Program-made: the position numbers and the translations under genes
Shown: piece after piece, positions 29,061 to 39,110 of the stretch
Position numbering within the stretch: position 1 is the stretch's first letter
Layout of the letters: the number at the start of each line of letters is the position of its first letter
Source of the DNA: Escherichia phage AV111
Sequence record: OR352941.1
Direction: 5' to 3' (one strand)
Length of the DNA stretch: 64,000 nt
The notes under the pieces: generated by a model
Seen by the model: the letters and a program-made list of their open reading frames with translations, nothing else
What the model was told of the DNA's origin: nothing
Database searches by the model: none

Positions 29061-29390
29061 TTATACTCGAGGCTTTTGAGCTTGTTTGGTATTGGATTCC
29101 CATGCAGCTTTGGTAATTTTGTTAGCGGCATAACCAAAGGCATTAGATAGAACACCTTTAGAGTTGAATACATCCAATCCAATAAGTACACCGGCTGCGT
29201 TAAATTTAGGAGCAAAGTATGCATTAGTTTTAGAAAGAGCTTTTTTCAATTCAGGGTCTTGAACCAAACCATCAAAAACGCCTTTACTATTTACTTTATA
29301 TGTTACTTTGGGATTTTTACCTTCTTCGATAGCAGCTTTCTGTTCCGCAGATAATGTAACTTCAGTGATAAACTCTTGATACGTTTTCAT
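29061..29390 (-). CDS. internal-protein-like (capsid-targeting leader)
   Basis: 109 aa; N-terminal MKTYQEFITE leader. Confidence 0.6.
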   Translation of the reverse strand: MKTYQEFITEVTLSAEQKAAIEEGKNPKVTYKVNSKGVFDGLVQDPELKKALSKTNAYFAPKFNAAGVLIGLDVFNSKGVLSNAFGYAANKITKAAWESNTKQAQKPRV

Positions 29391-29453
29391 TTTTGTTTCC
29401 TTGTTTATTTTGATAGAGTAATTATACCATATTAATACTTAAGCGTAAACAAT

Positions 29454-29714
29454 TTAAGCTTTACCGCCAGAAATAATTCCGAAGTTGTTAAAATCGTATC
29501 CAATATCGTCAACATCTACTTTAGGGCTTGCTACAACATAAGCAATTTCACTACGTTTTGCATAGGTGTTGATTTCTTTACCATCGCCACCTAAGAAAGA
29601 ATACCCATTACGTTTTAATGAGCCAAAGTCTTCCGCATCACCAATGAAAGCTTTAACTTTAAATTTAGGACCTTTGGCATCTGCTTCAATGATAAATTCT
29701 TGATACATTTTCAT
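29454..29714 (-). CDS. internal-protein-like (capsid-targeting leader)
   Basis: 86 aa; N-terminal MKMYQEFIIE leader. Confidence 0.6.
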   Translation of the reverse strand: MKMYQEFIIEADAKGPKFKVKAFIGDAEDFGSLKRNGYSFLGGDGKEINTYAKRSEIAYVVASPKVDVDDIGYDFNNFGIISGGKA

Positions 29715-29720
29715 TTTTCC

Positions 29721-30134
29721 TTAGTAAATTGATTTGCCATAATATTTATACCAAGACGGCCGTTGAGCAATTTTTTCATCTAAGCGTGCTTGACTTATCG
29801 CAATGGACGCTTCGGACGGGTCATAATTATTACGAAATTCGGCAGGGATGTCGGAAATATCCTGGACTGTCGTGTCCTTGATTTTGAAACCACGTTTCAA
29901 GCATTCAGCGATTAGCTCGATTTGACGTAAACGTAAAAATTCGAGTTTGTCGTAAAAGAATGTTACGTGACCTGTGCCTAAGATAAATGTTGGAGAGATT
30001 TTAAAATCCTTTACACGTTTACCGTTTTGAACATGTTTACGGACTGCACCAAATACGCGTGGTAATTCACGATACTCAGCCATAAGATGTTGGTCGGACA
30101 GTTCAGAAACAAGTGTTAAATTGATACGAGTCAT
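29721..30134 (-). CDS. denV: endonuclease V (pyrimidine-dimer DNA glycosylase)
   Basis: [31 protein letters not shown]... matches recalled T4 DenV; ATG 30132-30134; early promoter 30162-30190. Confidence 0.9.
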
Positions 30135-30161
30135 AATTTCCTCCAAGTAGTTGATGAATGT

Positions 30162-30190
30162 ATAGTATCAAAACCCTTGGAGGAAGTAAA
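30162..30190 (-). promoter_or_regulatory. early promoter upstream of denV
   Basis: Minus GTTTACT-N17-TACTAT; CCTCCAAG/CTTGGAGG inverted repeat overlapping the SD. Confidence 0.5.
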
Positions 30191-30192
30191 CA

Positions 30193-30474
30193 CTATTTTT
30201 CTGAAGCGCCTGAAATATATTTTTCAAGACGTTGTTTCATTAGCGAGCCGTTCTTAGCGATTTCTTCCGGTTTATCGCACATACGTAACAAGGCTTCAAG
30301 CTTAGCGATATCGCTGGTACGTTCAAATTTGCGAGTATCTATCTTACTAGCAAGTTCAGAAATACGTGCTAATAGACTTTCGGCTTCAACCAAAGCTGCA
30401 CCTAGCTTAGTTGCAAATGTGTCAGTAGCTTCGTTAAGAATAGATTCTGATAAAAATTCACTATATGTTTTCAT
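30193..30474 (-). CDS. internal-protein-like (capsid-targeting leader)
   Basis: Start at [10 protein letters not shown] (ATG 30472-30474), ATGA overlap with lysozyme stop. Confidence 0.55.
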
Positions 30475-30959
30475 ATATACGCTTTCCAAGTTCCTGTTTT
30501 AAATGTTGAGATTACGCGTTTCGCGCGATTAGGTGTCTGACGATACCATTTAGATTGGGCTAGATTTACTGCCGCTTCATCCCAACGTTTCTGTTGAAGC
30601 ATACGAAGAGAATTAGTAAAACCGGCGACGCCTGATATACCCATTTGGAAGACCATATTGACCAATGCACACCGACGAACCGCATCTAAAGAATCATATA
30701 CCGGTTTAAGTTTAGCATTACCCAAGATTCCGCGAACGGCTTTATCAACGTCTTCATTAAATAGCTTTTCAGCCTCATCAAGGGTAATTGTACCGTTGCA
30801 TTTACGTCCGATCATTCTGTCAAGTTCAGCTTTAGCTACGGCTAAAGACGGATTCTTTGTTACTAAATGGCCAATGCCAATAGTCCAAAAGCCTTCGGTG
30901 TCTTTGTATAAAATCAGTCTAAGACCTTCGTCATTACGAAGCATTTCAAATATATTCAT
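30471..30959 (-). CDS. e: endolysin (T4 lysozyme)
   Basis: [32 protein letters not shown]... near-identical to recalled T4 lysozyme; 162 aa. Confidence 0.95.
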
Positions 30960-38194: not shown

Positions 38195-38228
38195 CATCTT
38201 TATGAAATATTTTTATGCCCTAGATACC

Positions 38229-38255
38229 AAAAAGCCCCAACCTTTCGGAAGGGGC
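38229..38255 (-). terminator. intrinsic terminator
   Basis: Minus GCCCC-UUCCGAAAGG-UUGGGGC then UUUUU; near-identical to 38763-38790. Confidence 0.55.
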
Positions 38256-38261
38256 ATTCTA

Positions 38262-38525
38262 TTATTTAATTTGTTTAGCAGACCAGATACGGTCTTTAAT
38301 AAGTTTTTGGATATCTTCAACATACTCAAGGCTATGAGCGTGAGGATTATCTTTGAAGCTATGTGCTCGTGCCAGTTTCTGGCCTTCTGTTTTGATTACT
38401 AAAAGCTCTTTAAGAATTGCTTCATACTTAGAAATAATTCCTTTGGCGATATTTTTTTTCTTGAGCTGCTTTAGGGTCCGCTTTTGGCGCAGGTGCTTTA
38501 CCTGTAGCTTTCTGGAACAATTCAC
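38262..38525 (-). CDS. hypothetical basic protein; may be the shifted-frame continuation of 38428-38727
   Basis: 87 aa ORF overlapping the IP-like ORF by 98 nt across a T8 run at 38452-38459. Confidence 0.3.
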   Translation of the reverse strand: MNCSRKLQVKHLRQKRTLKQLKKKNIAKGIISKYEAILKELLVIKTEGQKLARAHSFKDNPHAHSLEYVEDIQKLIKDRIWSAKQIK

Positions 38526-38727
38526 CTGATGCAGCTAGGCTTTTAAAAACTCGGCTAACAGTATTAGCATTAGTAAAACCTTCGGCTTTAAAATCTCTAA
38601 TAAAACGGAAACGTTCTTCATCAGAGGCGTCTTTGTAAGAATATTTACCTGCTTGAATTGCTGCAATCGCAGCGGCTTTTACATCTGAACTAGATTGTTC
38701 AGTCAAAAATTCAGCGTATGATTTCAT
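38428..38727 (-). CDS. internal-protein-like (capsid-targeting leader)
   Basis: 99 aa; N-terminal MKSYAEFLTE; Ala/Lys/Pro-rich C-terminus. Confidence 0.5.
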   Translation of the reverse strand: MKSYAEFLTEQSSSDVKAAAIAAIQAGKYSYKDASDEERFRFIRDFKAEGFTNANTVSRVFKSLAASGELFQKATGKAPAPKADPKAAQEKKYRQRNYF

Positions 38728-38762: not shown

Positions 38763-38790
38763 TTATTATGCCAAAAAGCCCCGACCTTTC
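38763..38790 (-). terminator. intrinsic terminator downstream of the structured-RNA region
   Basis: Minus AGCCCC-UUCCGAAAGGUC-GGGGCU then UUUUU. Confidence 0.55.
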
Positions 38791-39110
38791 GGAAGGGGCT
38801 AAGCCTTGCGGCAACCTTGTCGGGGTTCCACCTGCTAAGGCAAGTGTTTGTACGAAACGCCGGGATTCGAACCCGGTTATTAAGTAGTTGACGCTACTCA
38901 ATATTTTTAAAAGGCCATATCTCGACCATATCCGAACGTTCCGTCAAAAACGCTACTCGGCTTACGGCAAAGATATTTCCTCGAATCGATAATTCGGTGC
39001 GCCGTTTCTGCTGTGATGTAAGGGGATATTAACGAATCATAAAGATTTATTAAGACCAGTCCTTACTCAGGGAACATCAGTCCGACGACTTACCGGTAGC
39101 GACCCGGCTT
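38791..39110 (-). ncRNA. putative structured stable RNA region with tRNA-like acceptor/T-arm element (38851-38941)
   Basis: No ORF on either strand; perfect T-arm CCGGG-UUCGAAU-CCCGG at 38858-38874 flanked by pairing CGGAACG/CGUUUCG; further hairpins; bounded by tRNA-Arg region upstream and terminator 38763-38790 downstream. Confidence 0.35.

Follow-up and report, generated by a model that had tools for sequence, protein, structure and literature searches.

The window is the whole stretch of DNA that was analysed, 64,000 nucleotides of Escherichia phage AV111 (OR352941.1). It is ~98% identical to the Mosigvirus phages HY126, JK36 and APCEc01. On its minus strand exactly five ORFs start with MK[TMS]Y.EF[IL] (Table 1). 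They belong to the internal-protein (ip) genes of T-even phages, here a Mosigvirus of the RB69 group. The initial annotation had listed five ORFs with the N-terminus MK(T/M/S)Y(Q/K/S/A)EF(I/L) at these coordinates and had given no strand; all of them were found.

Three of the genes surround denV in the order e - ip - denV - ip - ip - vs.8. The ip gene before denV encodes a homologue of T2 Ip5; its ATG shares bases with the stop of the lysozyme gene e (ATGA). The two genes behind denV belong to the RB69ORF125c and RB69ORF123c families, respectively. A gene of the RB32ORF132c family has the tRNA cluster on one side and e.8-e.5 on the other, and ipI adjoins 57B on its downstream side, as in T4. 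Of the five leader genes, four thus map to the two Ip loci that are recognised, i.e. around e and denV and downstream of 57B.

Table 1. Positions of the leader-bearing genes and associated features in the window.
Feature	Position	Strand	Basis or remark
Ip-type gene, 109 aa, RB69ORF123c family	29061..29390	-	phrog_3966 'unknown function'
Leader MKTYQEFITE	start 29390	-	translated ORF
29061-29390 gene: chimeric leader with upstream region	29361..29449	-	alignment with APCEc01
Sigma-70-like promoter TTTACG-17-TGgTATAAT	29449-29421	-	
Ip-type gene, 86 aa, RB69ORF125c family	29454..29714	-	phrog_2667 'internal head protein'
Leader MKMYQEFIIE	start 29714	-	translated ORF
denV	29721-30134		Pfam-confirmed
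Perfect T4 late-promoter box TATAAATA	29743..29750	-	~36 nt ahead of the start codon at 29714, within the 3' end of denV
Ip5 homologue, 93 aa (RB69ORF127c)	30193..30474	-	phrog_3499 'internal head protein', E 2e-46
10-letter leader, motif LSE at 8-10	start 30474	-	translated ORF
Lysozyme gene e	30471-30959		Pfam-confirmed
32-nt direct repeat, downstream copy	38224..38255	-	repeat comparison; GC-rich hairpin and U-run, terminator-like
Ip-type gene, RB32ORF132c family, 154 aa (465 nt) in relatives	38262..38727	-	phrog_2280 'unknown function'
C-terminal part of the split gene	38262-38525	-	
5' part of the split gene, 99 aa	38428-38727	-	
A8 homopolymer run (T8 on the plus strand), cause of the frameshift	38452..38459	-	A7 in APCEc01, DCP548 and RB18
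Leader MKSYAEFLTE	start 38727	-	translated ORF
32-nt direct repeat, upstream copy	38768..38799	-	94% identical; AATAAATA and the gene's ribosome-binding site follow
ipI, 95 aa	41936..42223	-	PF11634 (IPI_T4), E 5.8e-50 over residues 20-95
Leader MKTYKEFISP	start 42223	-	translated ORF

The shared leader and its predicted cleavage sites

The degenerate DNA pattern for M-K-x-Y-x-E-F (ATGAARNNNTAYNNNGARTTY) has five matches on both strands of the 64 kb, with zero expected, and these are just the five ORFs. Dinucleotide-preserving shuffles of the sequence contained matches in 0 of 100 cases. A relaxed peptide search in six frames of the window revealed no credible candidate beyond the five. The codons of the leader vary synonymously (Thr ACG/ACA/ACC, Tyr TAT/TAC, Glu GAG/GAA, Ile/Leu ATC/ATA/TTA/TTG). 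Therefore the conservation is that of the peptide, which is itself under selection, and not just of a stretch of DNA.

The first ten residues of T4 IPIII suffice for entry into the head, and amber-suppressor genetics assigned residues 4 and 7 to targeting and residues 8 and 10 to processing by gp21 (PMC9026906). Position 4 of this capsid-targeting sequence (CTS) of T4 is aromatic and position 7 is Phe (PMC9026906). Foreign proteins, e.g. GFP, are packaged into T4 by the 10-residue CTS alone (PMC3012670; PMC9026906). In the window, the targeting determinants Tyr4 and Phe7 are kept in all five leaders and position 8 is either Ile or Leu throughout. Glu10 is present in four leaders; IPI has LTE at 17–19 instead. 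The gp21 cleavage motif [IL]xE is found in each of the five products: ITE, IIE, LSE (with an additional LNE at 13–15) and LTE at positions 8–10, and the LTE of IPI. The leaders resemble those of T4, where IPII and IPIII start with MKTYQEFIAE and IPI starts with MKTFKEFTSTTTPVSTITE; the cleavage motif of T4 IPI is ITE. Judged by these residues, the identification of the shared N-terminus as a T4-type CTS is supported. The comparison with the T4 N-termini and the search for the protease motif hence agree with the initial annotation, in which the leader was assigned to the internal-protein type of T4.

The predicted cleavage sites are ITE|V in the ORF123c-type product and IIE|A in the ORF125c-type product. 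In the leader of the Ip5 homologue there are two candidate sites, LSE10 and LNE15, of which LNE|A is the one conserved in the family. Relatives of Ip5 with an altered residue 10 retain LNE at 13–15, and for this reason the true site of the homologue is probably LNE 13–15. T2 Ip5 has the same layout, with a 15-residue leader and cleavage at [IL]xE 13–15. The leader of ipI comprises 19 residues (MKTYKEFISPDANVSTLTE), followed by a body of 76 residues that is 93% identical to T4 IPI*. Residues 1–76 of mature IPI* (PDB entry 2JUB) align with residues 20–95 of the window protein, directly after LTE19 (E 2.3e-41).

A scan of IMG/VR with the strict form of the leader detected at least 120 stretches with at least 142 ORFs. 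Among the matches listed, at least ~55 clusters of unrelated bodies stand behind the leader, and pieces of T4-like genomes carry 2–6 leader genes each, commonly 4–6 (JS98 and phiE142 are among those with five or six). A number of five is therefore ordinary, though above the three of T4. The set had been described as expanded; this is true relative to T4 and does not apply among T4-like genomes, where 4–6 such genes are common and RB69 has one more at the e/denV locus.

The N-terminus might also be a shared translation-initiation or recombination sequence that was spread by cassette shuffling, with the four proteins other than IPI being cytoplasmic and unpackaged. The DNA of the leader does act as a recombination site (see below) and similar AGGA-type ribosome-binding sites precede all five genes. 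However, conservation is seen at the amino-acid level, with synonymous codon differences. The conserved positions are the experimentally defined targeting and cleavage residues, and a translation signal needs no Glu10 (PMC9026906). The packaging of GFP by the CTS alone and the occurrence of the leader ahead of that many unrelated bodies in many T4-like genomes argue in the same direction. We regard such an origin as most improbable. At the sequence level, the alternative named in the initial annotation, a similarity due only to a shared translation-initiation sequence, is disfavoured by the synonymous codons and the conserved Glu10.

Bodies behind the leader

By sequence, the product of the 41936-42223 gene is the true IPI, orthologous to T4 IPI; the name it had been given is borne out by the Pfam family IPI_T4 and the alignment with 2JUB. 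The other four are direct orthologues of RB69 ORF127c, ORF125c and ORF123c and of RB32ORF132c, with bodies that are 96–99% identical. The three families other than that of the Ip5 homologue are small and restricted to T-even phages. The Ip5 homologue is 48% identical to T2 Ip5 (E about 2e-17).

With 90 phage records and 2 clusters in 5.8 billion proteins, the RB69ORF123c family is very small; all databases queried label it 'hypothetical'. An exhaustive HMMER search against 1.84 billion representatives returned its own cluster and one relative with 39% identity. Further matches were large repetitive proteins and look compositional. The RB69ORF125c family comprises 217 phage records and the RB32ORF132c family 511, all of the latter 'hypothetical'. 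An AlphaFold model of the ORF125c-type protein (alpha/beta, low confidence, pLDDT 63) has no match in the PDB, IPI* included.

When the leaderless bodies were compared all-against-all by BLAST, the only matches were between orthologues, and the bodies belong to different PHROGs. By sequence, the bodies are thus mutually unrelated, as had been proposed. No homology of the window bodies to IPII or IPIII was detected (no match better than E 0.8), so that the window, in contrast to T4, has no homologue of either. Profile searches of the four non-IPI bodies in Pfam, NCBIfam and PHROGs yielded just 'internal head protein' or 'unknown' and no functional lead, in line with the initial annotation, which had left the function of at least four bodies open. 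None of these four is similar to known anti-restriction proteins by sequence or, where modelled, by fold.

All predicted mature proteins are in the range of 8–16 kDa, similarly small as the T4 proteins. Clearly basic, lysine-rich bodies are predicted for three of the five proteins: IPI (pI 9.0), the ORF123c-type protein (99 aa, pI 9.7) and the RB32ORF132c-type protein (pI about 9.6–9.8). T4 IPI-III are similarly basic, with a pI of 9.0–9.7. With a pI of 8.1 and a net charge of +1, the mature Ip5 homologue is only weakly basic. The ORF125c-type body (76 aa, pI 6.4, net charge 0) is the sole non-basic one.

The basic bodies suggest that the proteins could be packaged for a mainly structural purpose, i.e. 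that they neutralise the charge of the DNA or aid the scaffolding core or head assembly rather than act as dedicated anti-defence effectors. In T4, IPIII mutants assemble heads more slowly and form more polyheads, and lysines of the IPs contact the phosphates of the DNA (PMC9026906; PMC3012670). A structural role would, however, favour conservation, whereas the bodies are unrelated to one another, fall into the at least ~55 clusters among the matches listed and are gained or lost between near-identical genomes. Moreover, one body is neutral, and T4 can do without all three of its Ips on laboratory strains, while each of them has a specific GmrSD target (PMC9026906; PMC12373910). A mainly structural role is thus rather improbable.

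Gene order, cassette exchange and the frameshifted gene

The window shares with T4 the ip neighbourhoods downstream of e and downstream of 57B. The order in T4 is e - ipIII - ipII - denV - vs.8, with both genes of the e locus preceding denV; in the window one gene precedes denV and two follow it. In RB69, denV is preceded by one ip gene and followed by three, and in JS98 leader-bearing genes flank it on both sides. A position of denV amid ip genes is therefore normal outside T4. Accordingly, the initial annotation was right that the arrangement differs from T4, and the arrangement is not peculiar to this phage, as RB69 and JS98 are similar. In T2, ip5 (together with ip7) is located downstream of 57B in the place of ipI, whereas in the window its homologue lies between e and denV and ipI is found at 57B. 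Compared to RB69 the order around denV is equal; the leader of RB69 ORF127c, on the other hand, is degenerate (MKTYMNFYQNLSLNE).

One additional leader-bearing gene is present in APCEc01 and RB69 between the two genes downstream of denV. The corresponding difference between the window and APCEc01 amounts to ~340 bp, and its junction is located inside the leader codons. Promoter, ribosome-binding site and codons 1–4 of the ORF123c-type gene are those of APCEc01 gene 180, and the sequence from codon 5 onward is that of gene 181. Because the junction falls within the leader codons, joining the front of the missing gene to the next gene from its codon 5 on, the alignment identifies the difference as a deletion of the neighbouring Ip gene (ORF124c type, present in RB69) by recombination between two leader-coding copies.

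The RB32ORF132c-type gene is bracketed by two copies of a 32-nt direct repeat. The ip genes behave as exchangeable cassettes, with the DNA of the leader and the flanking terminator hairpins serving as the short repeats for gain and loss.

This gene is split in the window. APCEc01, DCP548 and RB18 contain a single reading frame of 154–157 codons; the frame is broken because the window has A8 where these phages have A7. In contrast to RB32ORF132c, the window copy is frameshifted. The 38428-38727 ORF had been listed as one of the five genes; it exists as an ORF, yet it covers the front 99 codons of the gene and is not a complete one. In the AlphaFold model of the intact 154-aa form (pLDDT 73.6), a bundle of three helices at the N-terminus is connected by a disordered linker rich in proline and lysine (KAPAPKADPK) to a helical hairpin at the C-terminus. 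The A8 run is located at the end of the linker between the domains, and the frameshift removes the hairpin of the model. The intact model has no fold match in the PDB better than E about 1.

The truncated copy may be inactive in AV111, and the set may be partly decaying, with this gene and perhaps others being non-functional remnants and a working set of fewer than five. The additional A truncates the protein ahead of the conserved C-terminal hairpin, the A8 form is absent from IMG/VR (0 hits, compared to 3 hits for the A7 form) and one neighbouring cassette is deleted. Against this, the additional A may be a homopolymer sequencing error, and the truncated product keeps the leader and the whole N-terminal helical domain, which could allow both packaging and activity. 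Truncation at this run is also seen in P0021 and P0022, two further public protein clusters; the run is thus prone to errors, whether these arise during sequencing or in the phages themselves. The remaining four genes show no interruption and share 96–100% identity with the copies of many relatives. Partial decay is possible, with odds clearly below even.

The position between the tRNA cluster and e.8 is also occupied in RB18 (Tequatrovirus) and is empty in T4. It is possibly a third ip site, outside the two recognised Ip loci. T4 e.8 was considered as a counterpart of the 38428-38727 ORF and rejected, as e.8 has no leader and no similarity. Searches for RNA genes around this ORF with Rfam and ARAGORN gave only three tRNAs, further upstream.

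Proposed packaging and function

Our main reading is that the five are T-even ip genes whose products are packaged, trimmed, injected and active against restriction. We assign it a probability of roughly 0.78. For the four proteins other than IPI, we infer packaging, cleavage, injection and anti-restriction activity by analogy to the T4 proteins.

Each product would carry a T4-type CTS at its N-terminus, by which it would dock on the gp22/gp67/gp68 scaffolding core during prohead assembly. The protease gp21 would then cut after the Glu of [I/L]-x-Glu, i.e. after residue 10 in three of the proteins, probably after residue 15 in the Ip5 homologue and after residue 19 in IPI. The small, mostly lysine-rich mature body would be freed in the head and remain with the DNA. 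The machinery for this is present in APCEc01 (98% identical), where portal, gp67, gp68, the gp21 protease, the gp22 scaffold, gp23 and gp24 are encoded; these genes lie outside the window. The bodies would enter the cell with the DNA and act ahead of any phage gene expression.

Most likely, each body would block one variant of a modification-dependent type IV nuclease of the GmrSD/BrxU family, as do T4 Ip1, Ip2 and Ip3. IPI blocks the GmrSD of strain CT596. T4 requires IPIII on E. coli ECOR17, and IPIII expressed in the host is active without its CTS (Srikant 2022). Ip1, Ip2 and Ip3 inhibit one GmrSD variant apiece, a different one in each case and without cross-protection, and the remaining proteins of the Ip loci were predicted to be GmrSD inhibitors likewise (Silas 2025, PMC12373910). 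BrxU, an enzyme of the GmrSD family, cuts the DNA of Mosigvirus, which contains 5-arabinosyl-dC (PMC13390438); the same class of enemy therefore applies. The target enzymes of the window proteins would attack arabinosylated cytosine DNA, whereas those of the T4 proteins face glucosylated cytosine DNA. For the four non-IPI bodies, a target of the GmrSD/BrxU class is proposed purely by analogy.

Several observations count against the main reading. A perfect late-promoter box is present upstream of only one of the five leader genes (that of the ORF125c type), and the body of the same protein is neutral. The lack of resemblance to known anti-restriction proteins and the truncation of the RB32ORF132c-type copy also speak against it.

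A further proposal combines several of these points. Each of the four non-IPI bodies would be a new family of injected inhibitors and at least one would have a target other than GmrSD, e.g. nucleases of a different class that recognise arabinosylated cytosine DNA. The RB32ORF132c-type protein, encoded at a third ip locus, might moreover alternate between its full length and the N-domain alone through A7/A8 slippage at the domain boundary. We consider this combination unlikely.

As is proposed for the window proteins, the ejection and inner-body proteins of the giant phages phiKZ and SPN3US enter the head along with the DNA, have their propeptides cut off after Glu by a homologous gp21-like prohead protease and are ejected into the host (PMC9026906). 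The phiKZ and SPN3US proteins are much larger, have other propeptides, lack a 10-residue leader of the MKTYQEFIAE type and are not related to the bodies described here. Other parallels are T2 Ip5 and Ip7 and the T-even ip4-ip13 series, in which variable bodies follow a constant leader (Repoila et al. 1994, as cited by Rao and Black 2010 and by Silas 2025).

The feature is already known in kind, since it was stated by Rao and Black 2010 and by Silas et al. 2025, and these same genes have been public since the sequencing of RB69. Rao and Black 2010, citing Repoila 1994, described the T-even Ips as diverse defence proteins that share only the CTS (PMC3012670). The same idea is found again in PMC9026906 and in Silas 2025, where at least ten reported Ips are counted (PMC12373910). 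An IPI homologue of RB69 is mentioned in a 2026 paper. No mention of the RB69 or RB32 ORF names was found in the searched literature, and no virion proteomics of RB69-group phages in the searchable literature. Added here are two families so far labelled 'hypothetical', a possible third ip site, the frameshift and the leader-to-leader deletion.

Interchangeable injected proteins that share one packaging leader are a textbook phenomenon of T-even phages, for which a function has lately been assigned (Ip1, Ip2 and Ip3 against GmrSD). The other Ip bodies are small and easily testable candidates for new anti-restriction proteins. The RB69ORF123c and RB32ORF132c types, now 'hypothetical' in the databases queried, could be relabelled as candidate internal proteins. 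The candidate anti-restriction proteins are of relevance for the host range of therapeutic T4-like phages and for phages that carry arabinose instead of glucose on their DNA.

Diverse bodies and a gene deletion at the leader

The strict T4-type capsid-targeting leader (MKTY.EF..E) of internal-protein (ip) genes precedes at least ~55 unrelated body clusters in the IMG/VR scan (loci L013-L132). A few of the leader-bearing matches listed in that scan are long ORFs (364, 610 and 836 aa), and the scan also lists a family of 53-54 aa (MKTYKEFIKEDMVAGD...), which several T4-like genomes carry at a different position.

Near denV, the window and the ~98%-identical relative APCEc01 differ by an indel of ~340 bp. 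One leader-bearing gene, of the RB69ORF124c type (104 aa in APCEc01), is missing from the window. The indel junction falls between leader codons 4 and 5, so that the 29061-29390 gene carries a chimeric leader together with the promoter of the lost gene. The junction is direct evidence that leader-coding DNA serves as a recombination site. This promoter is strong and sigma-70-like, and the adjacent ip gene is preceded by a perfect T4 late-promoter box; the two neighbours may thus be expressed at different times.

Features of the ip-type genes and their surroundings
Feature	Coordinates	Strand	Remarks
T4 late-promoter box, TATAAATA	29743-29750	minus	in the terminal part of denV, preceding the 29714 start
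Sigma-70-like promoter, extended -10	29421-29449	minus	ahead of the 29390 start
Region compared at the ~340-bp indel	29361-29449		versus 1932-2412 of the APCEc01 locus (L001)
32-nt direct repeat, two copies	38224-38255 and 38768-38799		on both sides of the 38262-38727 gene
A8 run	38452-38459	minus	inside the 38262-38727 gene
tRNA-like T-arm sequence, GGTTCGAATCCCGG	~38800-38900	minus	directly upstream of the 38768-38799 hairpin
RB69 orthologue of the Ip5-like gene	1076-1357 of the RB69 locus (L008)

Surroundings and reading frame of the 38262-38727 gene

The two copies of the flanking repeat are 94% identical, and both form a GC-rich hairpin with a U-run after it. They resemble the promoter/terminator stem-loop cassettes of T4-type phages, which are proposed agents of modular shuffling. 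At the neighbouring T-arm-like sequence no gene was called by ARAGORN or by Rfam; a remnant of a tRNA is one possible reading of this sequence, and an equivalent of the T4 small stable RNAs rnaC/rnaD is another.

Within the gene, the A8 run causes a frameshift; relatives have A7 and encode 154 aa. Two further public protein clusters, P0021 and P0022, end prematurely at the same A run, which is located at the border of two predicted domains. The A8 run may reflect an error in sequencing, represent a null allele or be a site of slippage.

A degenerate leader in RB69

The leader of the RB69 Ip5-like orthologue is degenerate (MKTYMNFYQNLSLNE). It lacks Glu6, Leu8 and Glu10 and retains Tyr4, Phe7 and the LNE site, in front of a body with 99% identity. 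The RB69 gene provides a natural test for the importance of individual leader residues.
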